The notes beneath the pieces were generated by a model that did not search any database, was not told the origin of the DNA, and saw only the letters and a program-made list of their open reading frames with translations. Shown one piece after another: positions 4,888 through 28,902 of a DNA stretch of 64,000 bases (within the stretch, counting starts at the first letter, position 1; every line of letters starts with the position of its first letter). The DNA is from Escherichia phage UE-S1. The position numbers and the translations under genes are program-made. The DNA lies in sequence record ON568341.1; one strand, written 5' to 3'.

Positions 4888-4915
4888 GTACACATACCAA
4901 CACGGGAGAAACAAA

Positions 4916-5134: not shown

Positions 5135-5163
5135 TTGACAGTACTCAAATGTTTTAGTACTAT
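5135..5163 (+). promoter_or_regulatory. sigma70-type promoter (TTGACA-17-TACTAT), duplicated unit B
   Basis: copy of 4859-4887 block. Confidence 0.5.
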
Positions 5164-5191
5164 ATGTACATACCAACACGGGGGAAACAAA

Positions 5192-5434
5192 ATGATTACT
5201 TTAGAAAAACGTATCAAAGAAACTACATCGCTGGTGGAACTGTTAACAGTACTCAAATGTAAAACAACACCATTTAGCACGCCGGACTTTATTAATATGG
5301 TTGATGTTAATGGTCGCTATCGTATCACGGTCGAACAAGGAGCGGCGAAAGTATTCAGTACTAAAAACACGAAGGAAGTGATCCACGCCGTTAATGTTAA
5401 AAAAGTAGTTGCCATTGATAGTAAAGTACTGTAA
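5192..5434 (+). CDS. hypothetical protein (80 aa)
   Basis: ATG 5192 after GGGGGAAACAAA RBS. Confidence 0.55.
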   Translation: MITLEKRIKETTSLVELLTVLKCKTTPFSTPDFINMVDVNGRYRITVEQGAAKVFSTKNTKEVIHAVNVKKVVAIDSKVL

Positions 5435-5465
5435 TATAGTTTCATTAACTCAAGGAGAACATGCA

Positions 5466-6050: not shown

Positions 6051-6059
6051 AAAAGATTA

Positions 6060-6100
6060 AAAAAGGGATTGACTCCGGTCAGTCCCTTTGCTATTATATA
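6060..6100 (+). promoter_or_regulatory. repeated promoter-like dyad element, copy 2
   Basis: TTGACT 6069-6074, TATTAT 6092-6097. Confidence 0.55.
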
Positions 6101-6191
6101 TCCATTGAGAGATAACTCACTGACCCATAGGGTGCGGAAGTGTATCTATTATATAAGTATTCAGTACTGAAAACTATTTTTAAAAAAGTAC

Positions 6192-6219
6192 TTGCAAACT
6201 ATCTCAATGAGCGTATAAT
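6192..6219 (+). promoter_or_regulatory. sigma70-type promoter (TTGCAA-16-TATAAT)
   Basis: copy of promoter at 3192-3219. Confidence 0.55.
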
Positions 6220-6274
6220 GTTTTATATCGAGAGGGGGAAATGGTTCTCCCTAGTACTAAAAGGAATCAAGACG

Positions 6275-6496
6275 ATGACTACTATGACCTGCGTTCACGC
6301 TTCAAATCTTCTGAATGATGCAGCATTTAAAGCAGGTGAAGAATATCAATGCTATCGGGATGAAAATAAAAAAGTTTTTGTAGTTGATAATAATGGTTTC
6401 CATATTGAATTACAATCCGGCTTCACTGGTTTAAATGGTAAATCAGTATGGGGCGTACAGGATGATAAAGGTACATATCATTTTAAACGTAATTAA
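6275..6496 (+). CDS. hypothetical protein (73 aa)
   Basis: ATG 6275 after hairpin and AAAAGGAA RBS; track start 6140 lies upstream of the promoter. Confidence 0.5.
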   Translation: MTTMTCVHASNLLNDAAFKAGEEYQCYRDENKKVFVVDNNGFHIELQSGFTGLNGKSVWGVQDDKGTYHFKRN

Positions 6497-6499
6497 GTA

Positions 6500-6527
6500 T
6501 TGACAAAGTATATCAGTACTGTATAAT
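6500..6527 (+). promoter_or_regulatory. sigma70-type promoter (TTGACA-16-TATAAT)
   Basis: TTGACA 6500-6505, TATAAT 6522-6527. Confidence 0.55.
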
Positions 6528-6577
6528 AGTTTACATCAAGGGGAGAATGGTTCTCCCCACTAAAAGGAAACAAAATT

Positions 6578-6850
6578 ATGTCCAGCTACTCCGCTACTAT
6601 GATCATTAAAGATATGAACGGTAATCCTACTTCTGCTGGTGGATCATTTGGAAACATTAATTTAGATGGTCGGTTATCCATGCAATCAGCCATCGATGCA
6701 GCGAAAGAAGTTTTTAAGAATGAATGTACTGTTAGTAAGCTGGATTATATGGGTTTCGCTATCGAGAAAACTACTCGTTTTGTGAACTACAAAAATCCAC
6801 TGATGATTGATACTAACCTGAAAGCTAACGAAGTGGGGTACTTATTATGA
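6578..6850 (+). CDS. hypothetical protein (90 aa)
   Basis: promoter, hairpin, RBS. Confidence 0.6.
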   Translation: MSSYSATMIIKDMNGNPTSAGGSFGNINLDGRLSMQSAIDAAKEVFKNECTVSKLDYMGFAIEKTTRFVNYKNPLMIDTNLKANEVGYLL

Positions 6851-7038
6851 CAGTAGAAGAAGTAAAAAAAGTACTGGCAGTACTACGATATCATAATCAT
6901 TGCAAGGTGAAGAATGATCCTGATTATCTTGATTCATCCCTGGAGGAAGACACCTTGAACGCTATAAGCCATATGCAGACATTAGCAAAGCGTATGACTG
7001 AAAAGAACATGCCGGACTATATCGGAAATAAAATTTAA
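6847..7038 (+). CDS. hypothetical protein (63 aa)
   Basis: ATGA overlap with upstream gene. Confidence 0.5.
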   Translation: MTVEEVKKVLAVLRYHNHCKVKNDPDYLDSSLEEDTLNAISHMQTLAKRMTEKNMPDYIGNKI

Positions 7039-7045
7039 AAAGTAC

Positions 7046-7073
7046 TTGCATTGTAGTTAGATTAACGTATAAT
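7046..7073 (+). promoter_or_regulatory. sigma70-type promoter (TTGCAT-16-TATAAT)
   Basis: TTGCAT 7046-7051, TATAAT 7068-7073. Confidence 0.5.
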
Positions 7074-7124
7074 GTTTTATATCGAGAGGGGAAATGGTTT
7101 CCCCTCAAGTCCAGGAGATACACC

Positions 7125-7388
7125 ATGAACACTATCGAAATCACTATCAATGCACACGTATACGACAACGTAGTACTGCAAACTACTATGACCGCCAATG
7201 ATACCAGTACTTTGCGGAATACTGTTATTAGTGCTGTATGTGCCGCTATCGGTGATGTATCCCTGGAAAATTCAGAACACATCAACAACGGTTTCACTAT
7301 GTGCAAACGTGATAACGCAAAACATATCATCGTGGAAGGTTACGGCGGTGTAGAATTTAATGTTTATATGAAAAAAGTACTTGCATAA
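7125..7388 (+). CDS. hypothetical protein (87 aa)
   Basis: promoter, hairpin, RBS CAGGAGA. Confidence 0.6.
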   Translation: MNTIEITINAHVYDNVVLQTTMTANDTSTLRNTVISAVCAAIGDVSLENSEHINNGFTMCKRDNAKHIIVEGYGGVEFNVYMKKVLA

Positions 7389-7408
7389 TAACTAAAACAA
7401 AGTATAAT
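7381..7408 (+). promoter_or_regulatory. sigma70-type promoter (TTGCAT-16-TATAAT)
   Basis: overlaps 3-prime end of preceding gene. Confidence 0.5.
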
Positions 7409-7455
7409 GTTTTGCATAGGGGGAGATATCCTCCCCCACTAAAAGGAGTAATAAA

Positions 7456-7680
7456 ATGGCTAACTTTGATGAACTGATGCGGGAAGTAGCTTACCTGGCA
7501 GAAGAGAAGAAATCATTCGATTCTATCTATAACACCGCTCACCGTGATTCAGTACTGGCATGTAACCAGGATCAAAAAGATGAACTAATCGCCACCTATC
7601 ATGAAGCATGGAAGTACTACCGACAATGGGAGAAAGAAGAAAGTGAGTCTACCATTGACGGCCTCAATAATCTAATCTAA
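7456..7680 (+). CDS. hypothetical protein (74 aa)
   Basis: promoter, GGGGGAGATATCCTCCCCC hairpin, RBS. Confidence 0.6.
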   Translation: MANFDELMREVAYLAEEKKSFDSIYNTAHRDSVLACNQDQKDELIATYHEAWKYYRQWEKEESESTIDGLNNLI

Positions 7681-7699
7681 AAGTTTTATTTCAGTACTA

Positions 7700-7728
7700 T
7701 TGACATAGCTTGATAGTACTGATGTAAT
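7700..7728 (+). promoter_or_regulatory. sigma70-type promoter (TTGACA-17-TGTAAT)
   Basis: TTGACA 7700-7705. Confidence 0.5.
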
Positions 7729-7756
7729 AACTTTACTAACTACAAGGGGAAACATA

Positions 7757-8014
7757 ATGGATCAATTCACACAATATCGGGTAAATCCTCAAGCTATGGC
7801 CTACGTAGAAGACCATAAAACGTTACCAGTACTGCAACCAGTTAAAGGCCGTATCTATCGTGGCCTTGCCTGGGATACGGCCCAGGATGGATATAAAACC
7901 GTCGCCGTGGGTATGTATTGCGGTGATGGTGAATGGTTTGATCCAAATAATCCGGTATCCATTGACAGTACTGAAAAAATGAAATGGGCCGACTACATCG
8001 AAGATATTTCATAA
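7757..8014 (+). CDS. hypothetical protein (85 aa)
   Basis: promoter and RBS upstream. Confidence 0.6.
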   Translation: MDQFTQYRVNPQAMAYVEDHKTLPVLQPVKGRIYRGLAWDTAQDGYKTVAVGMYCGDGEWFDPNNPVSIDSTEKMKWADYIEDIS

Positions 8015-8021
8015 AAACTAT

Positions 8022-8049
8022 TTGACAGTACTAACCAGTAATGTATAAT
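8022..8049 (+). promoter_or_regulatory. sigma70-type promoter (TTGACA-16-TATAAT)
   Basis: TTGACA 8022-8027, TATAAT 8044-8049. Confidence 0.55.
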
Positions 8050-8104
8050 GTTTTACATAGAGCGGGGGAATAGTTCTCCCGCCAATAGTTTGGAGTAAAA
8101 CATT

Positions 8105-8305
8105 ATGTCTATCGCTATCGCCCTGGTTGAAGTACTGAAAGAAGCTAAAGCCAACCTTATCGACGTAAAGATCCAGGAACTACAAAACGGCTTAATCGGC
8201 TGTACTTGTACCGCTGGTGGAGCGGCAGACTATCGAGAACACGAATCACTCGAATCACTGGTTCGGTATCTTACCATGATCGTTGATGATTGGAGAATCA
8301 TCTAA
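8105..8305 (+). CDS. hypothetical protein (66 aa)
   Basis: promoter, hairpin, RBS. Confidence 0.55.
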   Translation: MSIAIALVEVLKEAKANLIDVKIQELQNGLIGCTCTAGGAADYREHESLESLVRYLTMIVDDWRII

Positions 8306-8318
8306 CAAAAAAGAATAA

Positions 8319-8359
8319 AAAAAGGGATTGACTCCGGTCAGTCCCTTTGCTATTATATA
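8319..8359 (+). promoter_or_regulatory. repeated promoter-like dyad element, copy 3
   Basis: TTGACT 8328-8333, TATTAT 8351-8356. Confidence 0.55.
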
Positions 8360-8468
8360 CGCATAGACAAAAACTAGCCCACAGGGTGCATAGGTGTATC
8401 CAAAATATATAGTTAATAACGGTGAGTAACTATCTGCTGGTGGAACTAAAACTATTAATAAAAAAGTA

Positions 8469-8497
8469 TTGACAAAGTATATCAGTACTGCAATAAT
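8469..8497 (+). promoter_or_regulatory. sigma70-type promoter (TTGACA-17-AATAAT)
   Basis: TTGACA 8469-8474; weaker -10. Confidence 0.45.
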
Positions 8498-8550
8498 GTA
8501 TCTCGTAGGGCGGCAATGGTGCGACGGCCCACAAAGTTAGGAGATTCACC

Positions 8551-8883
8551 ATGAGTACTTCAATCGCTATCGTTAAAGCTTTCATCCGTACTAATGTTTC
8601 CTCTGTATTCATCGACGGCCTCGACCGTAACGTAGAATACTCAATCATTATCGCACAAACGGCAAACGGTTCTCGGTACATCCTGAATGATAGTGAAGCA
8701 AATCACTACTACTTCACTAAAGCCACTGGCTTTAAACGCATCGATGCTGATGTAGTATACGCTAAGATGAATAAGCTGGTAGACAAGATTAACGCGAAAG
8801 GTACTATCGATTTACAGTACTGGACCGAAACCGATCCAGAATATGGATCTCACCGCTACCTGAATCCAGGTATCAAAATGTAA
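8551..8883 (+). CDS. hypothetical protein (110 aa)
   Basis: RBS AGGAGA upstream. Confidence 0.6.
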   Translation: MSTSIAIVKAFIRTNVSSVFIDGLDRNVEYSIIIAQTANGSRYILNDSEANHYYFTKATGFKRIDADVVYAKMNKLVDKINAKGTIDLQYWTETDPEYGSHRYLNPGIKM

Positions 8884-8890
8884 AAAGTAC

Positions 8891-8918
8891 TTGCATAGTA
8901 CTTAGATTCATGTATAAT
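8891..8918 (+). promoter_or_regulatory. sigma70-type promoter (TTGCAT-16-TATAAT)
   Basis: TTGCAT 8891-8896, TATAAT 8913-8918. Confidence 0.5.
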
Positions 8919-8972
8919 GTTTTACATAGAGAGGGGGAAATGGTTCTCCCTCCTAAATTAAGGAGTTTTATC

Positions 8973-9374
8973 ATGACCTTCTCAATCACTTCCTTCGCTG
9001 ACGTTTTAGTACTGGCCCGGACTTTTGGTAAAGCTGGCCTTGAGCACGCTGTAAGTAATGGTCATATGCACCCTGAATATTGCCGCATCATCGGTAGCTG
9101 CAAACGTTGGGCCGTGTCCCGTAACATTGAGATTGAAAACTTCAATGACGGCAACAACGAATATACAGTTGATGCAGTATTCGAAGCCGTTGATCTCGGC
9201 GGTATCTATAACACTAACCTGAATGATGTGCGTATCGTTCGCACGGGGTTCGGTGCTTATGATGTATCTATCCGTGAAGCTATGGACAAGGGATACATTA
9301 GCAAGGACCAGTTAGCTTACATCATGCAGCAAACTAAGGAACGTAACGAAGCACGTACTATCTTAGGGTTGTAA
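8973..9374 (+). CDS. hypothetical protein (133 aa)
   Basis: ATG 8973 after AAGGAG RBS; track start 8910 lies in the promoter. Confidence 0.6.
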   Translation: MTFSITSFADVLVLARTFGKAGLEHAVSNGHMHPEYCRIIGSCKRWAVSRNIEIENFNDGNNEYTVDAVFEAVDLGGIYNTNLNDVRIVRTGFGAYDVSIREAMDKGYISKDQLAYIMQQTKERNEARTILGL

Positions 9375-9442
9375 GCGTTACACATCACCAAACATCATAG
9401 GCCGCCTTGTAGCGGCCTTAACTATATCAGGAGTTCATACAC

Positions 9443-9652
9443 ATGAACTATACAGTATACAGCGTTCTAGGCACTATTGCAGGCGTACATGATAACGTCG
9501 ATGGTGCTATGCGTACAGTACTGCAACAGGTTCCACTAAAGCCTAAGACCATTAAGCAGATGACAGCACGACTAACCAGGGCGACGGCTGGCGTGGAAGT
9601 ATGGCAGGACTATGGGGATACACAGATAATCGTAAGCGTAACGAAGGATTAA
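9443..9652 (+). CDS. hypothetical protein (69 aa)
   Basis: RBS CAGGAG upstream. Confidence 0.55.
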   Translation: MNYTVYSVLGTIAGVHDNVDGAMRTVLQQVPLKPKTIKQMTARLTRATAGVEVWQDYGDTQIIVSVTKD

Positions 9653-9680
9653 TGCGTAAAAGGATTTAGTACTGATTCAG

Positions 9681-9747
9681 AAAAAAGTCAAGGCGTTTTT
9701 TAAATTATGCGTTAAAAAAATGCATAGGTAATCCCTTGACTTTTTTG
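9681..9747. promoter_or_regulatory. long inverted repeat at module boundary (13-bp arms AAAAAAGTCAAGG / CCTTGACTTTTTT)
   Basis: perfect arms ~40 bp apart, T-run after right arm; possible terminator of early unit. Confidence 0.4.
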
Positions 9748-9843
9748 AAATAAAAGGGATTGGACTATGGCAAAATGCGTAGGGGGCTAAAGGGCGGGTA
9801 ACCTTAGCGACTTCGTTAAAGGGGTATTACGAATAAAATGTTA

Positions 9844-9871
9844 TTGACTTTTTATATAAATCGTATAAAAT
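9844..9871 (+). promoter_or_regulatory. sigma70-type promoter (TTGACT-16-TAAAAT) for FamA array
   Basis: TTGACT 9844-9849; only clear promoter before a 6-kb run of overlapping genes. Confidence 0.45.
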
Positions 9872-9901
9872 ATGATTGATAATAATTTTAAGGGAGTCCC
9901 T

Positions 9902-10099
9902 GTGCGTATTTTAACTCAAGCAGAACACCACGAAAGACTTATCAATAACATGGCTATGATAATGTATAAGTCCCATGACCGTGGTATTGCATATAAGCGT
10001 GAATTAGTACTGGAACTATTCATTGGGACTAACTATCAGGAAAGGTATGTCAACGATTGGATTTGGTATTTAATTGAAGATATAACGAGTAAACTATGA
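9902..10099 (+). CDS. FamA small paralog (LGTNYQE family)
   Basis: GTG 9902 after AAGGGAG RBS (track ATG 9872 sits inside promoter); motif FIGTNYQERYV. Confidence 0.6.
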   Translation: MRILTQAEHHERLINNMAMIMYKSHDRGIAYKRELVLELFIGTNYQERYVNDWIWYLIEDITSKL

Positions 10100-10290
10100 T
10101 AATTTTAACTAAAGAAGAATATCAATCACTGTTACGTAAAAACTACGTAAAGATTTACAATACAGCCACACACGTAGAACGAATGGAGTTATACCTTTTG
10201 ATTACATTGGGAACTAACTATCAGGAAAGATGGGTGATTCAATATATGGATACATTGAAAAATAAAATATTGTCCACGAGGAAACAATGA
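10096..10290 (+). CDS. FamA small paralog
   Basis: motif LGTNYQERWV; 4-nt overlaps. Confidence 0.65.
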   Translation: MIILTKEEYQSLLRKNYVKIYNTATHVERMELYLLITLGTNYQERWVIQYMDTLKNKILSTRKQ

Positions 10291-10496
10291 AAATCATAAC
10301 ACACAGACAAGCATTGAGTCGTATGGTGAAGTATCTTGAATTGATGGTGTCTATACCAAAGAGCTTACCAAAAACTGAAAGAGAGATACATTCAGCAGAG
10401 TATCGTCTATTAGCAGTACTGAATACTAACTACCAAGATGAATATGTTGACGATTGGATTCTATCATTAATAGAAGATATAAAGAGTAAACTATGA
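10287..10496 (+). CDS. FamA small paralog
   Basis: motif LNTNYQDEYV. Confidence 0.65.
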   Translation: MKIITHRQALSRMVKYLELMVSIPKSLPKTEREIHSAEYRLLAVLNTNYQDEYVDDWILSLIEDIKSKL

Positions 10497-10708
10497 ATAT
10501 CATTGCGAACTCACATCAATATACCGAACGCGTCGCTGCCAGACAACTTGAAATCCTCATAATATACGAAGAAACTTCTGATTTAAACTTAGCTGAGGTA
10601 TTGGAAAATGAAATACTTTTGGGTGCATTCTTGGGAACAGACTATCAGGAGTATTATGAGGAAAAGTATTTGTCATCTCTTGAGAAATACATCAGGAGTA
10701 AACAATGA
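10493..10708 (+). CDS. FamA small paralog
   Basis: motif LGTDYQEYYE. Confidence 0.65.
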   Translation: MNIIANSHQYTERVAARQLEILIIYEETSDLNLAEVLENEILLGAFLGTDYQEYYEEKYLSSLEKYIRSKQ

Positions 10709-10932
10709 AACATTTAAGTATAAGAGAGAAGAATAAAATTATCATCAATGTCATGAACCGATATAATCAACTATTGGATAGAGAATACTCAAGTTCATAT
10801 GTGCACAGGATAAACACTACGGATGTACGCATGATGGCTGTACTGGGGACAAACTATCAGGAAAGTTATGTTCATGAGCACATAGTTGCACTCACTAATT
10901 ACATAATGGACAAATGTAATGAACATCATTAA
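10705..10932 (+). CDS. FamA small paralog
   Basis: motif LGTNYQESYV. Confidence 0.65.
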   Translation: MKHLSIREKNKIIINVMNRYNQLLDREYSSSYVHRINTTDVRMMAVLGTNYQESYVHEHIVALTNYIMDKCNEHH

Positions 10933-11143
10933 TAACTTTGAATACGAGGCCCGTGTTAAGAGTGCCAGAGAAAAAGAGAACACCATTTACTTCACTATGA
11001 TGTACTTACAATGGACTGAAATTGAAGAAAAGGTTGCTGAAGTATGGATGTTGGAATTCATGGGGACGCAGTATCAGAATATGTTTGCGGGTGAGTATAT
11101 CAATGTTCTTATGAAACAAATAGAAAGGAAGGAAAAGAACTAA
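10919..11143 (+). CDS. FamA small paralog
   Basis: motif MGTQYQNMF. Confidence 0.6.
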   Translation: MNIINNFEYEARVKSAREKENTIYFTMMYLQWTEIEEKVAEVWMLEFMGTQYQNMFAGEYINVLMKQIERKEKN

Positions 11144-11232
11144 TGGAGGGATGCTGTACTTTATTTGAACTTTTATATATTCATGAACACATAGTTGCCC
11201 TCACAAATCTAATAAAGGATAAATGTAAATGA
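11143..11232 (+). pseudogene. truncated FamA paralog remnant (29 codons)
   Basis: encodes MEGCCTLFELLYIHEHIVALTNLIKDKCK; 3-prime part matches C-terminus of gene 10705-10932 (HEHIVALTNYIMDKC); central motif deleted; start/stop overlaps retained. Confidence 0.4.
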
Positions 11233-11486
11233 AACACTTGACTGATGATGAACATGAAACTATAATTCGTAAACTAACCCCCATCACAAGGATAGTATAC
11301 GGTGATCCCAGCCTTACATGGAACCAAATGCAAGCTAAAGTTAATGAGCTATGGTTGCTGTACTTTATGGGGACTCAATATCAAGATAAGTTTTGCACAG
11401 AATATATCGAACAATTAACGAATGTTATACAGGATAAACTAAATGAACGAATTGTGGAAAAATATGAAAACTTTATCAAGCATTGA
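11229..11486 (+). CDS. FamA small paralog
   Basis: motif MGTQYQDKF. Confidence 0.6.
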   Translation: MKHLTDDEHETIIRKLTPITRIVYGDPSLTWNQMQAKVNELWLLYFMGTQYQDKFCTEYIEQLTNVIQDKLNERIVEKYENFIKH

Positions 11487-11715
11487 GTATCAGACTGCCC
11501 TCTTCTCTCTTCTAAATACCCTCCGCACGAACAATAAACTTTATAATTCCCGTGAAGCTGATATTGTCAACGCTGATGTATATCTTAATAAATTCATTGG
11601 GACTAACTATCAAGAACTGTTTGTTTTACGATATATCTCTGCACTAAGAAACGAAATATCAGATAAAACCCGACAAGCCAGAAGAGAATGGAAGAAACAA
11701 TGCGACACAGACTAA
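11443..11715 (+). CDS. FamA small paralog
   Basis: motif IGTNYQELFV. Confidence 0.6.
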   Translation: MNELWKNMKTLSSIEYQTALFSLLNTLRTNNKLYNSREADIVNADVYLNKFIGTNYQELFVLRYISALRNEISDKTRQARREWKKQCDTD

Positions 11716-11951
11716 ATCACAAAATGTATTGTAAACTATTACAGGAACTGACACAGAAACACTATAATACAATATCTTCCATATTACCCTATGATATCAT
11801 GCGTTTAATTCATAGTGAGGCAGAGATGTTAGTACTGATGACCGGTACTGATAAAATAGCAATCACCAGATCGATAGAGCAATATATTGATGCACACTGT
11901 CAATGTATTAGAACTGAGATATGGAGGCGAGTAAATGAAAGTACTGAATGA
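11688..11951 (+). CDS. FamA-like divergent paralog
   Basis: motif degenerate (MTGTDKIAI); same size and packing. Confidence 0.5.
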   Translation: MEETMRHRLNHKMYCKLLQELTQKHYNTISSILPYDIMRLIHSEAEMLVLMTGTDKIAITRSIEQYIDAHCQCIRTEIWRRVNESTE

Positions 11952-12150
11952 GTATCAGTATCATTGGAGGTTACAAACTATAAGAGGGAAAGTTGTTAGT
12001 ATTTCTTTAGACAAGTCTATTGCACAAGAGGACAAATGTGTTATAATAGCTGAAATGAAGTTGGGTGTATTTGTAGGAACAAACTATCAAAACATCTACA
12101 CTGACGTATTATTAAGTGCCTTACGCAACAAGGTGTTATCCAGAGAATGA
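11935..12150 (+). CDS. FamA small paralog
   Basis: motif VGTNYQNIYT. Confidence 0.65.
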   Translation: MKVLNEYQYHWRLQTIRGKVVSISLDKSIAQEDKCVIIAEMKLGVFVGTNYQNIYTDVLLSALRNKVLSRE

Positions 12151-12365
12151 GAAAATTAATAGGTTACGAATATGTTAAGCTTCTGAAAACCTGTAGTATT
12201 AGCAGGGTAAAGATTCAATCTGATAAGAGTATTCCTGTTGAACTAAAGTACGCAATGATGGCTGAACTTTATGTAGGTGCACTATTGGGGACAAACTATC
12301 AACAAATGTATGTAGACCTATGGGTTGACGCTCTACAGAAAGAGGTCCAAAGTAAATGCAAATGA
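12147..12365 (+). CDS. FamA small paralog
   Basis: motif LGTNYQQMYV. Confidence 0.65.
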   Translation: MRKLIGYEYVKLLKTCSISRVKIQSDKSIPVELKYAMMAELYVGALLGTNYQQMYVDLWVDALQKEVQSKCK

Positions 12366-12577
12366 TTCATTTATCTTACTATGAATATCAAAAACGTTTA
12401 AATGCATCAAGAGGTATAAGGATTCAAATCTTCAATAACAAAAGATTGAAATCTGAAGCCAAAAAAATCAAAATCATAGAAGCAGAGTTGTGCAACTTTC
12501 TAGGGACGAACTATCAGGAAGGTAAGATAAAAAACTATCTTAGAGAACTAATGATTAGTATCAAGAGTAAATGTTAG
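12356..12577 (+). CDS. FamA small paralog
   Basis: motif LGTNYQEGKI. Confidence 0.65.
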   Translation: MQMIHLSYYEYQKRLNASRGIRIQIFNNKRLKSEAKKIKIIEAELCNFLGTNYQEGKIKNYLRELMISIKSKC

Positions 12578-12581
12578 GCAG

Positions 12582-12839
12582 ATGTACATGAAAATGATTA
12601 AATTATCTCAAGCAAAATATAAAGAACGCCTGGAAAAAATTACACCTAAACTTAATGAAATCCATCACGGAGAAGTCATTAAACACGGAAATAAGATGAT
12701 TATGAAACTTGAGTTAAAGGTGGGTGCATTCATAGGAACAAACTATCAGGAGTATTATGTAGATGAATACATAATCGCACTTAAGAGATACATTGGAAGA
12801 AAACTATATCTACAAACTAAAGAATTGTATTGCAAATAA
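12582..12839 (+). CDS. FamA small paralog
   Basis: motif IGTNYQEYYV. Confidence 0.65.
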   Translation: MYMKMIKLSQAKYKERLEKITPKLNEIHHGEVIKHGNKMIMKLELKVGAFIGTNYQEYYVDEYIIALKRYIGRKLYLQTKELYCK

Positions 12840-12850
12840 ATGTGAGGTTG

Positions 12851-13120
12851 ATGAACATGCAAATGATTAATTTAAGTAAAGATGAATATACCGAGCGTAT
12901 GACAAAAATTACGCACAAACGTAATACAATCTATCACAACCCAGAAATTCAACACAGTAAGAAAATGATTATGATGCGTGAGTTAAAGATGGGTGTATTC
13001 TTAGGAACAAACTATCAAGATACAGAAGTAAATCGCTTAATCGCGGAGTTACTACTGGAAATCAGAGGTAAGCTGTACTTTCATCAAATGACCCAACCAC
13101 TGAGGTGTACTAAGAAATGA
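12851..13120 (+). CDS. FamA small paralog
   Basis: motif LGTNYQDTEV; start chosen downstream of previous stop. Confidence 0.6.
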   Translation: MNMQMINLSKDEYTERMTKITHKRNTIYHNPEIQHSKKMIMMRELKMGVFLGTNYQDTEVNRLIAELLLEIRGKLYFHQMTQPLRCTKK

Positions 13121-13332
13121 TCAACATCACATTGCAAGAAAGATTCATCCGAATCAACTATGCAATTACCAAATTAGATGCTACTATAGGATTCCAAAGT
13201 CTACCGTTCCAAACAAGAATGATATTAGAGTGCGAAGCTAAATTGGGTGTACTGTTAGGAACGCAACACCAACAACGATATGTGGAAATCTGGATTGATC
13301 TTTTAACCCAAAATGTACATGAGAAAATGTAA
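13117..13332 (+). CDS. FamA small paralog
   Basis: motif LGTQHQQRYV. Confidence 0.65.
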   Translation: MINITLQERFIRINYAITKLDATIGFQSLPFQTRMILECEAKLGVLLGTQHQQRYVEIWIDLLTQNVHEKM

Positions 13333-13569
13333 ATGAAAAATGAAATGATATACTTAACGAATGAAGAGTTTCAAGAGAAGATGTTAAAAATCTATGATAA
13401 TACTCTTGAGTACGTTCCAAATCAATCAATATATGAAGTGTCTGCGAATGTATTATTTCAGAAGCTACCATACGTTCTTGGTACTGATAAACAAGAATTT
13501 ATGGTCAAAAATATGATTGAACATCTTATGATGAGTATTAAGGAAAAAGTAAATGCAAAAACAAAATAA
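13333..13569 (+). CDS. FamA small paralog
   Basis: motif LGTDKQEFMV. Confidence 0.6.
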   Translation: MKNEMIYLTNEEFQEKMLKIYDNTLEYVPNQSIYEVSANVLFQKLPYVLGTDKQEFMVKNMIEHLMMSIKEKVNAKTK

Positions 13570-13570
13570 A

Positions 13571-13816
13571 ATGATATACTTAACACCTGCTGAGTTAACA
13601 GAAAGACTAGTTAAATCCAGAAGATATACAAATCAACTTCCTCACAACCCAAATCAAAGCCCAGCGGAAAGGAGTGCAGAAGTTTTATTCCAATCACTAC
13701 CATACCTTCTTGGAACTAATAGACAAGAGTATCATATCGAACGTATAATTAAATATCTTAAAATTACTATTAAGGAAAAGATACATGCTCAAGAATTTAA
13801 AAATCCTAACAGCTAA
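13571..13816 (+). CDS. FamA small paralog
   Basis: motif LGTNRQEYHI. Confidence 0.6.
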   Translation: MIYLTPAELTERLVKSRRYTNQLPHNPNQSPAERSAEVLFQSLPYLLGTNRQEYHIERIIKYLKITIKEKIHAQEFKNPNS

Positions 13817-14027
13817 TGAATATCATAAGATTGTAATGACGACTAATAGTGCAATTTCTAAAAAATCAAATCCCAAATACATACTGGAACACACATTTGA
13901 AGAACGACAATTAACTTTAGTTGAAGCAAAACTTCTTGCACTCCTAGGAACAAACTATCAAGAAGAGTACGTTAGAAAACTAATATACCTTTTAACTAAA
14001 CATATTAGAAAAAAGAAAAACGCATGA
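13785..14027 (+). CDS. FamA small paralog
   Basis: motif LGTNYQEEYV. Confidence 0.6.
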   Translation: MLKNLKILTANEYHKIVMTTNSAISKKSNPKYILEHTFEERQLTLVEAKLLALLGTNYQEEYVRKLIYLLTKHIRKKKNA

Positions 14028-14254
14028 AACACTTGACAGATGATGAACATGGGCTTATAGTAATGGATGTAATCAACATCGAATACAAAAAGTTGATACG
14101 CTACCGTTGTTATGAAGATAAGCAACTCGTTCTAGAAGAACAGAAGTTGTTTCGACTCTTAAACACAAACTACCAAGCACAATACGAAGAATCGTATATG
14201 TACCTTTTGGCGAGGAAAGCAAAAAGAGATTATGAAAATTTTAAGCGAAGGTGA
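14024..14254 (+). CDS. FamA small paralog
   Basis: motif LNTNYQAQYE; N-terminus MKHLTDDEH shared with gene 11229. Confidence 0.65.
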   Translation: MKHLTDDEHGLIVMDVINIEYKKLIRYRCYEDKQLVLEEQKLFRLLNTNYQAQYEESYMYLLARKAKRDYENFKRR

Positions 14255-14447
14255 TGCAGTAATATTACTTATCGAGAATTCACGTAAATTCGTAAACATA
14301 ACACTGTCTGATATAGATGAAGATGACAAAGAAGTACTGAGAGCAGATTTAAGAGTACTGTTACATCTCGGAACAAACCTACAAGAAAGATATGTAGAGT
14401 TCTACATTGATGAACTTAAAGAATCAGTACTGAAAAGATGCAAATGA
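14232..14447 (+). CDS. FamA small paralog
   Basis: motif LGTNLQERYV. Confidence 0.6.
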   Translation: MKILSEGDAVILLIENSRKFVNITLSDIDEDDKEVLRADLRVLLHLGTNLQERYVEFYIDELKESVLKRCK

Positions 14448-14665
14448 AAATCATTACTGACGAAGAATACCTAACAATCATAAATGGACTGTTTTTGAAG
14501 CTATATGCTATTAACATATCAAACCTACCAGATATGGATAAAATTATTAAGAGAAATGAAATCTATGTTCTAGCTACCCTGGGAACTAACTATCAAGAAT
14601 ACGATATTAATGATTATATTAAGACACTTAAACGAGCGATTGAACTAAAATGCCAAAACCACTAG
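14438..14665 (+). CDS. FamA small paralog
   Basis: motif LGTNYQEYDI. Confidence 0.65.
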   Translation: MQMKIITDEEYLTIINGLFLKLYAINISNLPDMDKIIKRNEIYVLATLGTNYQEYDINDYIKTLKRAIELKCQNH

Positions 14666-14865
14666 GAACAGCAGAATACATTGAACTCATGGGATTACAC
14701 TTCTCATCCTTTCAGAAACTTATGCGAGAATCAAAGAATGATTTAGAATATACCATCAGAGGTTCAGATTTAAGAATGCTTCTCACCCTAGACACAGATT
14801 CCCAAGAGCGATTTGTCAATGAGCACATTAGAGCACTTTTAATGGAAATTCAAAGTAAACTATGA
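14650..14865 (+). CDS. FamA small paralog
   Basis: motif LDTDSQERFV. Confidence 0.6.
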   Translation: MPKPLGTAEYIELMGLHFSSFQKLMRESKNDLEYTIRGSDLRMLLTLDTDSQERFVNEHIRALLMEIQSKL

Positions 14866-15077
14866 AGGAAATATCAAACCAAGAGTACTTGGCACTATTC
14901 AGAAAGAATAATCATAAATTTATGGCACTTGATACAAGAACTGATATAGGGGAACTTGAAAAAAATCTTTTGCGTTCAGAGATGATAGTACTGACACTTT
15001 TAGGAACACAGCATCAAGAGAGAACTGTTAATTCATATATTGAGATTCTTACGAAGCTTATACAGGAAAAACTATGA
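14862..15077 (+). CDS. FamA small paralog
   Basis: motif LGTQHQERTV. Confidence 0.65.
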   Translation: MKEISNQEYLALFRKNNHKFMALDTRTDIGELEKNLLRSEMIVLTLLGTQHQERTVNSYIEILTKLIQEKL

Positions 15078-15295
15078 GAATCATAACACAAACAGACATA
15101 TTTAAGTTAGCAAGAGAACATACATCTGAAATTGATGCTATAGTATCAAAAAGTTACAATGACCCTTATACACAAGATGTACACTACAATGAATTATGGG
15201 TGTATATACTTTTAGGTACAAATTATCAAGAGCAAGCAGTACAGAAGTATTTGACAGCCTTAAGTACTGCTATTGCTAATGGAATAGGTGTTTAA
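15074..15295 (+). CDS. FamA small paralog
   Basis: motif LGTNYQEQAV. Confidence 0.65.
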   Translation: MRIITQTDIFKLAREHTSEIDAIVSKSYNDPYTQDVHYNELWVYILLGTNYQEQAVQKYLTALSTAIANGIGV

Positions 15296-15539
15296 AATGC
15301 TAGTACTGACAGAACTAGAAATGTATCATAGATTTAACAAGTACTATCATTTACTTAAGCCTATACAGAGGATTAAATGTCCATTTGAAGAGAAACAGGT
15401 ATTAATTTATGAGCATAAGTTATTTGTATCATTAGGTACGAATGAACAAGAGTATTATTTGAAGTTGTACTTAATTACTTTAATTGAATTGATTAATCAC
15501 AAAACTCAGAAAGCTAAGAAATCTAAAAATGAAAACTAA
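15288..15539 (+). CDS. FamA small paralog
   Basis: motif LGTNEQEYYL. Confidence 0.6.
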   Translation: MFKMLVLTELEMYHRFNKYYHLLKPIQRIKCPFEEKQVLIYEHKLFVSLGTNEQEYYLKLYLITLIELINHKTQKAKKSKNEN

Positions 15540-15867
15540 TATTCAACTCAAGGTATACATATCTTATGAATCTATATACATCAAATGCAGTCTATGTAAA
15601 GATGTAATGGATTATAAAGGTAAGCCATTCACAATTACTTACAGTCTAACAGGAGGTTTTTATATATCTTTTGTTGATTACGAAAATAAAATATACAAGC
15701 ACATTGATATTAAAGATTTAAGTACCTTGTCAGATGAGGAATACTTTCAAGAATCATTAGTATGGGATTTAGAGTTTCCTATGACATTAGTACACAAAAT
15801 GATAGTTCTAATGAAAGAAACTAAACCTGAGCCGAGTGGTTATGAAGAATTCATTATTGAGTATTAA
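15529..15867 (+). CDS. FamB paralog (FQ-S motif family)
   Basis: motif SDEEYFQESLVWD. Confidence 0.6.
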   Translation: MKTNIQLKVYISYESIYIKCSLCKDVMDYKGKPFTITYSLTGGFYISFVDYENKIYKHIDIKDLSTLSDEEYFQESLVWDLEFPMTLVHKMIVLMKETKPEPSGYEEFIIEY

Positions 15868-15879
15868 GAGTACTGATAT

Positions 15880-16095
15880 ATGAAAATATTATCATACAAA
15901 GATTATAGTAAGCTTATCAGTGCTTTGCAACCAGAAATTAGGAGAATTAATTCTCTTCCTGTATCTAATGCAGAATGTACAGTACTGAAAAAAGAGTTAA
16001 TATTAAAACGCACAGTAGGTACTAACTATCAGGATAATAGTGTTCGAGATTTAATTAGAGGGTTAATGAACACAATAAAGGCCAAGTGCCATTGA
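15880..16095 (+). CDS. FamA small paralog
   Basis: motif VGTNYQDNSV. Confidence 0.6.
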   Translation: MKILSYKDYSKLISALQPEIRRINSLPVSNAECTVLKKELILKRTVGTNYQDNSVRDLIRGLMNTIKAKCH

Positions 16096-16101
16096 CAGTA
16101 C

Positions 16102-16130
16102 TTGACGGAGCTTTTCATTACTGATATAGT
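16102..16130 (+). promoter_or_regulatory. sigma70-type promoter (TTGACG-17-TATAGT)
   Basis: TTGACG 16102-16107, TATAGT 16125-16130. Confidence 0.45.
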
Positions 16131-16159
16131 ACACAAACGTTAATCATAGGGTAGAAATT

Positions 16160-16405
16160 ATGTTAAAATTTTTAAATTTCCTTATCGTCTTGTGTATTGT
16201 TCTTGGGATTGCACCGTTTGTACTGGTGTATATGGATTCAGATGAAATGCAAAAGATGAATTGCACAAAGACGGGACAGAGTAGAGAAGAGACGATTCTT
16301 ATGCCTGTTACCGTTATTGTTAATAATATGCCCATTACAAACATGGTCCCTAACCTAACGACAACGTACCAGTACTCTTGTACAGACGGGGAGAGGTGGA
16401 GATGA
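16160..16405 (+). CDS. hypothetical small membrane protein
   Basis: N-terminal hydrophobic segment FLNFLIVLCIVLGIAPFVLVY. Confidence 0.5.
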   Translation: MLKFLNFLIVLCIVLGIAPFVLVYMDSDEMQKMNCTKTGQSREETILMPVTVIVNNMPITNMVPNLTTTYQYSCTDGERWR

Positions 16406-16722
16406 AATTTAATATAGCAAAAACATCGAATGTATGTATATTTGGTTATGCAGATGAGTTAGGTGATCTTGACATTCTTTTGTACAAAAAGGATGGTGTT
16501 ATGCATTTCAAGTACCAGGATGAAGAGGCAGACAATTATCCTTTACCTAATTTAGTACAAATGCAGGAAGAGGAATTATTCCAGTACAGCTTAGTATATG
16601 ACATTGATATTTGCACGATGCCAGTACTAATTAATATTCAAAAAGTGATGCTCGATGTGTTTGATAGGCTAATACAAGGCACACAAGGAAGAACCATATA
16701 TGTCAATGTACAAGACAATTAA
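16402..16722 (+). CDS. FamB paralog
   Basis: motif EEELFQYSLVYD; ATGA overlap. Confidence 0.6.
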   Translation: MKFNIAKTSNVCIFGYADELGDLDILLYKKDGVMHFKYQDEEADNYPLPNLVQMQEEELFQYSLVYDIDICTMPVLINIQKVMLDVFDRLIQGTQGRTIYVNVQDN

Positions 16723-16915
16723 TCAAGAATGGAAGACCCAAAAATACAGAGAATTCAATAGGAATTTTACAAAAGACGAATTGAATATAAAAACAACAGA
16801 ATTTGATATGTTTATTTTTCTCGGAACACGTTCACAGGAGCAATTTGTTCATTATTATATAAATTCGTTGCGAACGGAGATAGTATGCAAAACAAAGGGT
16901 ATTATAAAAAGGTAA
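16700..16915 (+). CDS. FamA-like paralog
   Basis: motif LGTRSQEQFV. Confidence 0.55.
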   Translation: MSMYKTINQEWKTQKYREFNRNFTKDELNIKTTEFDMFIFLGTRSQEQFVHYYINSLRTEIVCKTKGIIKR

Positions 16916-17151
16916 ACCAACATTTGTACGCTACAAAGTACAGGGATTTTTGTTTAAAGGGTGGTGATGAAGATTTTTCTTTGCGATTATCAGAATTTAA
17001 TCTGTTATTTTATCTTGGTACATCGGAACAAGAAGAAATGGCACAGAAATTTATCAAGCACCTTGTACAAAAAATTAATATGCAAATTTTGATGCTTAAG
17101 TTACAGAATGAGATAAATGAATATGAACCCAACAATAGTACTGGATCTTAA
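16885..17151 (+). CDS. FamA-like paralog
   Basis: motif LGTSEQEEMA. Confidence 0.55.
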   Translation: MQNKGYYKKVNQHLYATKYRDFCLKGGDEDFSLRLSEFNLLFYLGTSEQEEMAQKFIKHLVQKINMQILMLKLQNEINEYEPNNSTGS

Positions 17152-17506
17152 AAAAGTAATATTTCTATTGAATGCCAGAAGTGAATTGTATACAGAGTTA
17201 AAAGAGATTAATGCATTTTATCAGAATTTTGTAATCCAAGAGTTCAGTGATTTAATTACAGATGCATTATTTGAATTCTCGGAGAAATACAAAGGAGCCG
17301 AGTTCAGTGTTAAGAATGTATTACGTCCTTTATCTAAGCGTATAATAAAATTGGATCATTTTAAATTTGACAATAAAGATTTATTCAGCTATAATCCTAA
17401 TACAGCTTTATATTTTATTCCTGATTCAGACAAAGATCACCCAATTCATTACGGATGGATTCTGTCGTACATAGAACAAGGAAAGGAGTATCCTATTAAA
17501 TGGTAA
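17117..17506 (+). CDS. hypothetical protein (129 aa)
   Basis: ORF track. Confidence 0.5.
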   Translation: MNMNPTIVLDLKKVIFLLNARSELYTELKEINAFYQNFVIQEFSDLITDALFEFSEKYKGAEFSVKNVLRPLSKRIIKLDHFKFDNKDLFSYNPNTALYFIPDSDKDHPIHYGWILSYIEQGKEYPIKW

Positions 17507-17864: not shown

Positions 17865-18418
17865 ATGAGATAGAGTTATTAGCACACAAGATAAGTACAA
17901 TAATGCTTATCCTCAATAACAACCATCCTATATCGCAGATAGATGGAATCCTGAGTCAGAGGACAGGTGGTAGTTTATATTTGTCCATAAACGCAAATAT
18001 CGCAAGGAAATACATTGACATTGGTGATGTTGATGCTGAAATCGAATGTGATACAACTGGAATTGTTGATGTAGGTGCATTAATCAGTTCAAATCCTGTA
18101 TCAGTATCCCCATTGACCAAAGGTGTTAGTACAGGATTCGAAGGATATTTGTGGTATAATGCTAATGATAATTATTTTATATATCAGCATTCCAATACAA
18201 ATTATGATGAAGATAAATTTGAGTTCATTGACCCTTATGATGAAGCTGGAGTATTTCAACAATCATTAATCACAAAACCACATCAAATGATGTATCTAAT
18301 GTTATTCAGTACAATGAATTTGAATCCATTAATTAATGGTTTAAAGTTTTATATTCAATTGAATCTGGTTCATATAGTTTATGATTTATTAATGCAAGGA
18401 TATAGTTATGAAGTATAA
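17861..18418 (+). CDS. FamB paralog
   Basis: motif EAGVFQQSLITK. Confidence 0.55.
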   Translation: MNEIELLAHKISTIMLILNNNHPISQIDGILSQRTGGSLYLSINANIARKYIDIGDVDAEIECDTTGIVDVGALISSNPVSVSPLTKGVSTGFEGYLWYNANDNYFIYQHSNTNYDEDKFEFIDPYDEAGVFQQSLITKPHQMMYLMLFSTMNLNPLINGLKFYIQLNLVHIVYDLLMQGYSYEV

Positions 18419-18710
18419 AATGATGTATACTCCAGATATGATTTATGTTGAATTAGAAGACGATGACGACGGGTGGAATTTGATTTATTCAATTAGTTCA
18501 GGTTGGTACATGGCACATTTAAATGATAACAAAGTTACAGATTATTTTGTAGATTTCAACACCTTATCCGATGAAGAATTGTTTCAACAACAATTAGTGA
18601 TTGATACAGGTGGTTATGATGTGTTATTATTAAAAAAGATACAGAAAGCTGTTATTGATTTTAAGCCCAATATGTTGCAAAGGAAATATTATGACATCGA
18701 AGTACAATAA
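18408..18710 (+). CDS. FamB paralog
   Basis: motif DEELFQQQLVID. Confidence 0.6.
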   Translation: MKYKMMYTPDMIYVELEDDDDGWNLIYSISSGWYMAHLNDNKVTDYFVDFNTLSDEELFQQQLVIDTGGYDVLLLKKIQKAVIDFKPNMLQRKYYDIEVQ

Positions 18711-28004: not shown

Positions 28005-28537
28005 TGAAAGTTAACATTAATGACTTTGATGCATTACAAGATTTATCAAAAAAGATTCGCACCATCGTACCAGTACTTAAAAAATGCAGTACTGGTTTAA
28101 TCGATCCTAGTACTGTTGTTAATGAGAAGTACAATTTTCATCGTGTATTACAGGGGACAGGTGCATTTCAGAAGTGTGAGGTACGTGAGAAACATGTAAT
28201 TGATACATCGTTGTTTTCTATTGGTGCACCTGTGTCAAACAATACTATTTTCCTGGATGCCTCTGGAAATATTCAACAATTAACATTTAAGAAAAGGAAA
28301 AAGAATAATAACATTGGTGTGTACGCGATGAAGTGGGGACAGCCAGCGTTGATGCGTGACATTCACATTCCTAAGTACAATTTCAATGCATTTGAAGAAC
28401 AGTGTTTTCAACTTTCTTGTACTGACCCTGACTATGCTATCATTCAATTCTATATGGAATTGCAGATTGCATTTAATAGTAATTTGTATATTAACTTATT
28501 GGCAATGAACATAGATGAAGTATTCAAAAACATTTAA
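28001..28537 (+). CDS. FamB-like paralog
   Basis: motif EEQCFQLSCTDP (divergent). Confidence 0.5.
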   Translation: MMKVNINDFDALQDLSKKIRTIVPVLKKCSTGLIDPSTVVNEKYNFHRVLQGTGAFQKCEVREKHVIDTSLFSIGAPVSNNTIFLDASGNIQQLTFKKRKKNNNIGVYAMKWGQPALMRDIHIPKYNFNAFEEQCFQLSCTDPDYAIIQFYMELQIAFNSNLYINLLAMNIDEVFKNI

Positions 28538-28733
28538 TCGAATTGAATACATGAGAACTGTGAGAGCGGTGTGGAATATATGGTACACTACTAAACCAAA
28601 AATGGATTACCATGATTTTAAGCTCTTGTTCTTTGTTGGCTCTAACAAACAGGATGTTGCAATGAAGGGTTATATTCAGCACTTACAGGAACTAATCCAG
28701 AAGAGAATATATGAAAATAATAGACCAAAATGA
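28515..28733 (+). CDS. FamA-like paralog inside FamB array
   Basis: motif VGSNKQDVAM; start uncertain. Confidence 0.5.
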   Translation: MKYSKTFNRIEYMRTVRAVWNIWYTTKPKMDYHDFKLLFFVGSNKQDVAMKGYIQHLQELIQKRIYENNRPK

Positions 28734-28902
28734 CATTGCTAAACTATTCAATATATATTCTACTAGAATGATGCAAACAGATTCATATAGTACTAAATTC
28801 AAAGAGTTGAAAGTACTGATGTACTTGGGAACACAATATCAGGAACAAGTTATTTTAGAATATATTAATTCATTAAAGAAGGATATCCGTGATGTACGAT
28901 GA
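28711..28902 (+). CDS. FamA paralog inside FamB array
   Basis: motif LGTQYQEQVI. Confidence 0.55.
   Translation: MKIIDQNDIAKLFNIYSTRMMQTDSYSTKFKELKVLMYLGTQYQEQVILEYINSLKKDIRDVR

Follow-up and report, generated by a model that had tools for sequence, protein, structure and literature searches.

Why would a phage keep some thirty small, related genes together next to its terminal repeat, and what might their products do? The question is raised by Escherichia phage UE-S1 (record ON568341.1), of which we analysed a stretch of 64,000 nucleotides (hereafter the window). An earlier note on this DNA had pointed to about 28 same-strand open reading frames (ORFs) between 9872 and 17151, with a further pair at 28515-28902, and had guessed at a diversified effector or anti-defence repertoire. 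We found that these ORFs are the members of one old multigene family, FamA, which evolves by gene birth and death, and we tentatively favour a role for its products as small binders made early in infection.

Megablast of positions 9800-17200 against phage genomes identified the window as Asteriusvirus (121Q/PBECO4/G17-like) jumbo coliphage DNA: all 35 matching records were Escherichia or Salmonella jumbo phages of this genus (121Q, PBECO4, G17, Sharanji, phAPEC6 and others), the best nucleotide identity over the array was 89.5% across 97% of the query, and each gene beneath the match was annotated 'hypothetical protein'. The ORF listing and profile hidden Markov models (HMMs) gave 30 FamA members in the window, of which 28 lie within 9902-17151 and two more at 28515-28733 and 28711-28902, every one encoded on the + strand; the run and the distant pair do belong to one family, as the earlier note had supposed. 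A first profile HMM, built from 23 motif-bearing ORFs, recovered 29 of the 364 six-frame ORFs of at least 40 aa (E ≤ 10), and a deeper profile, run on the + strand ORFs of the window (E ≤ 1e-3), recovered all 30, including a divergent member at 11688-11951 that carries an insertion in the GT-motif and had been missed by the first. No further FamA ORF of at least 40 aa was found at these reporting thresholds, on either strand in the six-frame search or on the + strand with the deeper profile. In a PHROGs search, 29 of the 30 members matched phrog_4148 (best E = 2e-26), which carries no functional annotation. The motif-bearing ORFs of the array encode 64-96 aa, and their alignment reproduced the conserved ends and variable core described before, an N-terminal M-K-x-L-T..EY and a C-terminal LGTNYQE..YV..YI..L...I..K flanking the middle that varies; identity averages 25% per column, and only a T, a Q and one L are near-invariant. 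The run had been described as consecutive, which holds strictly for the first 25 genes; beyond them it is interrupted by two genes of another family, FamB, and by an unrelated 81-aa ORF with a hydrophobic, membrane-like N-terminus.

FamA genes are real coding genes. The possibility, raised with the original description, that the motif is the translation of a DNA-level repeat in varying frames was ruled out by the absence of any reported unit-length (~215-nt) period over the array in Tandem Repeats Finder, by synonymous variation, and by a ratio of nonsynonymous to synonymous substitution rates (dN/dS) of about 0.35. Direct DNA repeats extended over no more than the motif codons, where identity was 60-80% and the differences fell at third positions; orthologues were syntenic in seven other genomes, with pooled dN/dS of 0.34-0.37 in six comparisons and 0.22 in Turkey5, the latter from its single orthologue. 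A conserved C-terminal Cys in several members proved to be a by-product of the next gene's ATG within AAA-TGC, not a functional residue. Two codon biases bear on a further explanation, that selection acts at the nucleic-acid level on GGR-ACN-AAC-TAT-CAR, recurring every ~215 nt as a recombination, processing or protein-binding site, the ORFs being secondary: the conserved Asn49 is AAC 16 times out of 19, where the window's genes use this codon at 27% (p about 1e-7), and the conserved Gly47 is GGA or GGG in 20 of 26, against a 40% background (p = 0.0015), and both biases appear again in Turkey5, whose paralogues form an independent set. We nevertheless regard this explanation as very improbable: all remaining conserved codons are at background synonymous usage, the codons of Thr48, Gln51 and Glu52 vary without restriction at the third base, Rfam gave no match, and the conservation follows a protein fold predicted with high confidence. 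An example of the two biased columns, 47 and 49, lies at 12288-12296.

That fold was modelled with AlphaFold2 for the 72-aa member at 12147-12365, using a 120-sequence family alignment (predicted local distance difference test, pLDDT, 96.1; predicted template modelling score, pTM, 0.80). The confident model makes FamA a four-helix domain, with helices at residues 6-14, 17-25, 31-45 and 52-71 and a small bridge from residue 2 to residue 49. Twelve of the 22 most conserved columns are hydrophobic, and the polar ones are K2, E8, E39, G47, T48, N49, Q51, E52 and K69, the burial and three-dimensional clustering of conserved residues being judged by the pattern of the sequence together with the bridge seen by DSSP. 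In the model, T5-x-x-E8 and T48-x-x-Q51 come before helix 1 and helix 4, respectively, and can be read as N-capping boxes, and G47, at the end of helix 3, as a Gly C-cap; since T-x-x-E/Q boxes precede helices and G47 ends one, the LGTNYQE signature is probably structural. A helix-turn-helix (HTH) DNA-binding reading of LGTNYQE was rejected, as no HTH family or fold matched and the motif fits capping better. Paralogues keep the hydrophobic core and these capping residues in common; they differ in helix 2, the loop that follows it, the first half of helix 3 and net charge, and their pI ranges from 4.5 to 9.9.

The family is confined to Asteriusvirus-type jumbo phages. Its profile, searched against 1.84 billion representative proteins, recovered 92 clusters of 52-269 aa, and those that were traced came from Asteriusvirus genomes or from uncultured contigs with the same array architecture and 12-17 members; tblastn likewise confined the family to 35 Asteriusvirus records, and among the viral structures of BFVD convincing matches were restricted to Asteriusvirus paralogues. 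The alignment, profile search and structure prediction that the earlier note had proposed as checks gave one family, a confident four-helix model and no outside relative. Profile comparison found no homology to the colicin immunity protein Im7 (hhalign probability 0.3%), to the T4 anti-sigma factor AsiA (0.1%) or to the interleaved FamB. These results bear on whether FamA could be an immunity or exclusion repertoire, directed against competitor phages and mobile elements or against the phage's own toxins and nucleases, in the manner of the orphan immunity gene arrays that lie beside polymorphic toxin loci. Small helical domains of ~70-90 aa on one scaffold with varied surfaces, laid out in tandem, would suit such a role, as would the gene with a ParE-like toxin domain in the adjacent terminal repeat (4608-4862); yet no cognate toxin family is interleaved (FamB is uncharacterised and has 7 members only), the comparison with Im7 showed no profile similarity, and no immunity-protein fold was among the top structure matches, so that we consider the idea quite unlikely.

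How the array arose is clearer. Paralogues share 9-50% identity (median 25%), and 43% of the genes have their nearest paralogue no more than 2 positions away, compared with 13% after shuffling (p < 0.0005), which is the signature of old tandem duplications. Per-segment dN/dS, taken over 458 reciprocal orthologue pairs, was 0.18 for the motif, 0.24-0.40 for the helices and 0.40 for the variable middle, and 1.26 for the C-terminal tails. The middle, which had been called hypervariable, does differ between paralogues, but it is conserved between orthologues, and therefore it was diversified and then maintained and is not hypermutating; each paralogue's own version of the surface is kept by purifying selection. 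The number of copies in the main array varies between relatives from 20 (Turkey5) to 31. Syntenic best matches were found in 121Q, G17, vB_Ec-M-J, Turkey3, SD-15_S21 and a Logan contig, and in Turkey5 93% of the window's FamA members lacked an orthologue above 50% identity while the adjacent terminal-repeat genes were 97% identical.

Such turnover leads to the question of whether most copies do anything at all. Tandem duplications fixed after capsid enlargement (the Hendrix ratchet) might have left genome filler in which most copies have little function. A dN/dS of ~0.35 is relaxed by comparison with the values generally typical of essential genes, the C-terminal tails evolve neutrally (1.26) and copies can decay; the 121Q array was itself read in this way by Hua et al. 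2017 (PMC5646251). We give this explanation a low probability, as dN/dS is well below 1 in all structured segments, there are no young duplicates (top identity 50%), and reading frames are intact across at least seven genomes and in uncultured relatives; its logic is further weakened by fixed ~21-kb terminal repeats in place of headful-determined ends.

Two observations on individual copies may be added. Some Asteriusvirus genomes carry, at the position of window 15880-16095, a protein of 269 aa (P0086) with an N-terminal FamA domain and a C-terminal region of ~200 aa without a detectable family (8001-8810 in the relatives' stretches); as a clue to function it failed, since neither P0086 nor the neighbouring ORFs matched Pfam. 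The gene at 14024-14254 is 95-97% identical in six relatives (dS ~0.02), where the genes around it have dS values of 0.3-0.5, and its first 28 nt, ATGAAACACTTGACAGATGATGAACATG, which contain a promoter-like site TTGACA-17-TATAGT, are 96% identical to the start (11229-11256) of the otherwise diverged gene at 11229.

The array has a fixed place in the genome. PhageTerm has defined direct terminal repeats (DTRs) of 20.7-21.5 kb in Sharanji, fEgEco12 and vB_Ec-M-J; that of fEgEco12 (20,993 bp, confirmed by restriction digests) ends at the same place as window ~9803, and the annotated DTR end of vB_Ec-M-J (record position 21525) corresponds to window 9803. This end falls inside a GC-rich non-coding element of ~70 nt (9757-9825) that is near-invariant in seven genomes, including the divergent Turkey5, and that is probably the terminase recognition or cut site setting the repeat boundary. 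Its sequence, GGGATTGGACTATGG...GGGCGGGTAACC/TTAGCGACTTCG, stays near-invariant even where the flanks diverge. In every genome for which the upstream flank was compared, the array starts just 3' of this element. Across window 1-45000 we also observed a step in divergence at the boundary: DTR genes are 96-97% identical to those of Turkey5 and vB_Ec-M-J, and just past it the median identity is 36%/32% (Turkey5) and 74%/70% (vB_Ec-M-J), which would fit a recent exchange of the repeat, or else constraints that differ strongly from one side to the other.

A sigma-70-type promoter-like site, TTGACT-16-TAAAAT (9844-9871, 10/12 match), starts 41 nt past the DTR end and is kept in six of seven relatives. 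The exception is Salmonella phage SD-15_S21, in which a deletion (its 2500-2560, window 9830-9960) removes the promoter and the start of gene 1 while 27 downstream members are kept; read-through from the DTR may be enough to express these, unless the assembly contains an error. The start codon of gene 1 is GTG 9902 and not the ATG at 9872, where the run had been said to begin: relatives have ATG in place of the GTG and annotate a 65-aa product, and GGGAG lies upstream, while ATG 9872 abuts the -10 hexamer, is not conserved and would precede the transcription start. With family-consistent start codons, ATGA overlaps of 4 nt occur at 11 of the 27 junctions of the main array. Overlaps of 1-4 nt had been reported nearly everywhere; 18 of the 24 member-to-member junctions do overlap, and the others are five gaps of 1-23 nt and one of 85 nt (11144-11228), the only sizeable gap between adjacent members, which holds a decayed copy. 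Only gene 1 has a strong Shine-Dalgarno (SD) sequence, and most internal genes have no clear one. A site scan found no terminator-like site on the + strand inside the array, and it placed further promoter-like sites at 11238, 14033 and 16102; the one at 11238 (11/12 match) is not kept in orthologues and is probably coincidental. Because the genes share a strand behind a promoter-like site, with no terminator-like site, frequent ATGA overlaps and weak internal SD sequences, it is plausible from these signals that the array is a single translationally coupled polycistron behind 9844-9871. Directly after the array, inside ORF 17117-17506, a perfect 12/12 sigma-70 consensus promoter at 17367-17395 may start the next transcription unit.

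The paralogues might instead serve the phage's own development, as subunits of a hetero-oligomer or as regulators of transcription, replication or DNA organisation, in which case coupling of this kind would fix their stoichiometry. The gap-free, ATGA-coupled organisation speaks for this, as do the large FamA set at the same locus in every Asteriusvirus genome examined, purifying selection on all segments, and conserved polar residues (K2, E8, E39, T48, N49, Q51, E52, K69) that could form a common docking pole. We think it unlikely all the same: members have been gained, lost, fused and decayed between close relatives (20-31 copies), one lineage has replaced nearly its whole repertoire, and no HTH or other nucleic-acid-binding fold or family matched. 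An AlphaFold model of a Gly/Ser-linked tandem dimer, a crude test on a shallower alignment, showed no confident interface (pTM 0.43, pLDDT 69). The family is also missing from the virion: none of the array products gp462c-gp489c was among the 62 proteins of the phAPEC6 virion proteome determined by mass spectrometry, which suggests that FamA products are non-structural, although small proteins are easily missed by this method.

We rank first, while holding it tentatively and at less than even probability, the reading of FamA as a set of small binding proteins, expressed together early in infection, that would serve host takeover or anti-defence. It is placed there because of the repeat-adjacent position, the sigma-70 promoter and the non-virion status; because one scaffold carries many maintained surfaces and charges while dispensable members turn over; and because of the analogy with the terminal multigene families of large eukaryotic DNA viruses. 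As far as can be told from sequence, host sigma-70 RNA polymerase would start at 9844-9871, possibly joined by read-through from strong promoters in the repeat; the array would be the first transcription unit after the left terminal repeat, its genes would be expressed together, and ribosomes would pass from gene to gene via overlapping stop and start codons. The products would be soluble, non-virion four-helix binders of ~70 aa made early in infection, which share a scaffold and differ in surface, each neutralising or redirecting a different host protein or variants of one, and the array would be a dispensable, fast-turnover set for host takeover, host range or anti-defence. The original guess of effectors or anti-defence proteins is compatible with the evidence from position, turnover and fold, and is plausible on these grounds.

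Several results weigh against such early binders. No family was matched in Pfam and nothing consistent in NCBIfam, the PADLOC defence models gave six single-member chance matches only, a PDB sequence search gave no match, Foldseek against PDB returned nothing at E ≤ 0.001 and only generic helical-bundle fold matches, and no cellular homologue was present among the 1.84 billion representative proteins; neither homology nor fusion ties the family to a target or a defence system. There is no sign of pervasive positive selection (dN/dS < 0.5 in all structured segments), and no recent duplicate of the kind expected of a fast arms-race 'accordion', the top paralogue identity being 50%. The turnover is not specific to FamA, since the next 28 kb (17-45 kb) are equally divergent from Turkey5 (median 32%). 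Equimolar, coupled expression of 28 proteins would suit a multi-subunit assembly as well, and the timing of expression was deduced from promoter consensus and position only.

The favoured reading has a more specific form, a germline-encoded counter-defence library. All its proteins would dock on one shared hub through the pole that is conserved (N-terminal strand, E8/Y9 and GTNYQE turn); the hub might be a phage factor or a machine of the host, for example RNA polymerase or a protease, and the variable poles would capture different host defence or regulatory proteins. In this specific form we consider it unlikely. If true, about 30 adaptors or decoys made together as infection begins would give broad, pre-emptive cover against strain-specific immunity, a new strategy built on a new fold.

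In jumbo phages, small early genes of unknown task number in the hundreds, and the FamA array, one of the largest blocks of paralogues on record for a phage and present in phages that grow on E. coli K-12, offers a tractable entry point to their function. New here are the definition of the family with a confident four-helix model that has no detectable relative, its exact placement as the first predicted transcription unit after the 21-kb terminal repeat, and the evidence that selection preserves the paralogues one by one even as the set is reshuffled from lineage to lineage. Should FamA proteins prove to be binders, they would constitute a natural small-protein scaffold with varied surfaces. 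The features of the locus are listed in Table 1.

Table 1. Features of the FamA locus and its outlying pair (positions in the window).
Feature	Position	Strand	Basis or remark
GC-rich non-coding element, right boundary of left direct terminal repeat (~9803)	9757..9825	.	near-invariant in 7 genomes
Sigma-70-type promoter-like site TTGACT-16-TAAAAT	9844..9871	+	10/12 match; 6/7 relatives
FamA gene 1, 65 aa, GTG start, SD GGGAG	9902..10099	+	profiles; 198-nt CDS annotated in relatives
FamA gene 2	10096..10290	+	ORF listing, profiles
FamA gene 3	10287..10496	+	ORF listing, profiles
FamA gene 4	10493..10708	+	ORF listing, profiles
FamA gene 5	10705..10932	+	ORF listing, profiles
FamA gene 6	10919..11143	+	ORF listing, profiles
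Decayed FamA remnant	11149..11213	+	DNA repeats; intact 52-aa member there in G17 and SD-15_S21
FamA gene 7	11229..11486	+	ORF listing, profiles
FamA gene 8, ORF opens 11443	11464..11715	+	ORF listing, deeper profile, start analysis
FamA gene 9, divergent, GT-motif insertion, ORF opens 11688	11700..11951	+	alignment, deeper profile
FamA gene 10	11935..12150	+	ORF listing, profiles
FamA gene 11, AlphaFold-modelled member	12147..12365	+	ORF listing, profile, model
FamA gene 12	12362..12577	+	ORF listing, profile, start analysis
FamA gene 13, ORF opens 12582	12594..12839	+	ORF listing, profile, start analysis
FamA gene 14, ORF opens 12830	12863..13120	+	ORF listing, profile, start analysis
FamA gene 15	13117..13332	+	ORF listing, profiles
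FamA gene 16, ORF opens 13333	13345..13569	+	ORF listing, profile, start analysis
FamA gene 17, ORF opens 13553	13571..13816	+	ORF listing, profile, start analysis
FamA gene 18	13785..14027	+	ORF listing, profiles
FamA gene 19, unusually conserved between phages	14024..14254	+	ORF listing, profile, orthologue comparison
FamA gene 20	14232..14447	+	ORF listing, profiles
FamA gene 21	14444..14665	+	ORF listing, profile, start analysis
FamA gene 22	14650..14865	+	ORF listing, profiles
FamA gene 23	14862..15077	+	ORF listing, profiles
FamA gene 24	15074..15295	+	ORF listing, profiles
FamA gene 25, ORF opens 15288	15297..15539	+	ORF listing, profile, start analysis
FamB member interrupting array (EELFQESLV motif)	15529..15867	+	not FamA
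FamA gene 26; position of 269-aa fusion protein in some relatives	15880..16095	+	profiles
81-aa ORF, hydrophobic N-terminus, promoter-like site ahead at 16102-16130	16160..16405	+	ORF listing
Second FamB member interrupting array	16378..16722	+	FamB comparison
FamA gene 27	16700..16915	+	ORF listing, profiles
FamA gene 28	16885..17151	+	ORF listing, profiles
FamA gene 29, outlier pair 11 kb downstream	28515..28733	+	profiles; 94% identical orthologue in vB_Ec-M-J
FamA gene 30, outlier pair	28711..28902	+	profiles, orthologue comparison

On the repeat side of the boundary (1-9.8 kb) the window holds small monocistronic genes separated by gaps of ~85 nt, with seven perfect 12/12 sigma-70 consensus promoters, each ahead of a small gene. 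Their products include a DksA/TraR zinc finger (1394-1651), a GNAT acetyltransferase (1716-2072) and a ParE-like toxin domain (4608-4862), and the gene at 5409-6050 gave a weak kinase match. Immediate-early host-takeover regions exist in other phages with long terminal repeats, and by analogy the stretch 1-9800 looks like such a module. In the related, Rak2-like phage CBB, RpoD-type promoters cluster in regions of small ORFs near the repeat, which its authors read as early host-takeover genes (PMC5259590). A 38-nt element, AAAGGGATTGACTCCGGTCAGTCCCTTTGCTATTATAT, occurs in three identical copies (3055-3092, 6062-6099 and 8321-8358) as a hairpin with a 12-bp stem that contains the -35 hexamer TTGACT and is followed by a -10 TATTAT; a similar arrangement, CCCTTGACT...AAGGGA, is found at 9735-9762.

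The left arm as a whole is rich in duplicated genes. FamB has 7 members of 100-242 aa with an invariant E..FQ within EELFQESLV (15529-15867, 16378-16722, 18408-18710, 23543-24271, 24268-24627, 30759-31100 and 32637-32999), two of them inside the FamA array and one, 23543-24271, carrying the domain twice. As a functional clue FamB was set aside, since it matched only PHROGs of unknown function (13866 and 15629), with one T4_MRH match at chance level (E = 0.024). Another family has 7 members of 147-167 aa, five in tandem at 24637-26934 and then 32177-32680 and 33384-33878; a 4-member family of 91-103 aa lies at 49960-51369, and two paralogue pairs at 4859-5434 and at 22360-22908 and 34912-35475. 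One ORF of the family with 147-167 aa (26022-26510) encloses an 85-nt tRNA-Cys with anticodon ACA called by ARAGORN at 26070-26154, which Rfam did not match at its gathering threshold and which may be a false positive.

How does FamA compare with what is already known? The tandem array of phage 121Q was mentioned in one sentence by Hua et al. 2017 (mBio), who name only this array and one in phage G at such a scale (PMC5646251), and a 2026 review echoes the mention (PMC13282480); the array is undiscussed in the Asteriusvirus genome papers that we checked. The feature has thus been on record in 121Q since 2017, without characterisation. The 121Q array, or PHROG 4148, is the same locus: PBI_121Q_319-346 match our profile, with 25 members in the compared stretch, and correspond in gene order to those of the window, with amino-acid identities of 60-100%. 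The single-sentence account gives no family definition, structure, DTR position, selection analysis or function, and its 'very similar' overstates the likeness of copies that share 9-50% identity as paralogues; moreover, the window phage is a different isolate with gains and losses of its own.

Bacillus phage G, with ~35 zinc-ribbon genes, is likewise a case of one small domain expanded in a single jumbo lineage, with an unknown role, and it is this expansion and not FamA that Iyer et al. 2021 described (PMC7824862). The zinc-ribbon proteins have been suggested to be transcription factors or DNA binders (PMC7824862), whereas nothing supports DNA binding for FamA. The folds are unrelated, the FamA model being all-helical with no zinc ligands, and the host and phage group differ.

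The colicin DNase immunity proteins Im7 and Im9 have four helices in ~70-90 aa and a variable specificity helix, and immunity genes sometimes stand in tandem arrays. FamA resembles them in its predicted four-helix architecture, its size of ~70-90 aa and the combination of a conserved helix/turn region with a variable part, and differs in having neither profile similarity to Im7 nor an interleaved toxin family.

T5, with its pre-early genes, and SPO1 carry host-takeover gene blocks in their terminal repeats. These blocks have many small uncharacterised genes at the entering genome end, within long direct repeats, and use the host sigma-70 polymerase; the window's DTR genes at 1-9.8 kb, monocistronic and each with a consensus promoter, fit this description. 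FamA, unlike them, lies just outside the repeat and consists of paralogues in a predicted polycistronic arrangement with one 10/12 promoter-like site upstream.

Terminal multigene families are also found in large eukaryotic DNA viruses, the MGF families of African swine fever virus (ASFV) being an example. The poxvirus host-range families with their 'genomic accordions' (Elde et al. 2012, as cited in a passage of PMC13359090) are, like FamA, sets of paralogues adjacent to the terminal repeats of a large linear dsDNA genome. There is no homology between FamA and such families, and the FamA duplications are old, without the near-identical copies of an active accordion. What they share is a copy number and repertoire that vary by strain, non-structural products (putatively so for FamA), and a region much more divergent than its surroundings.

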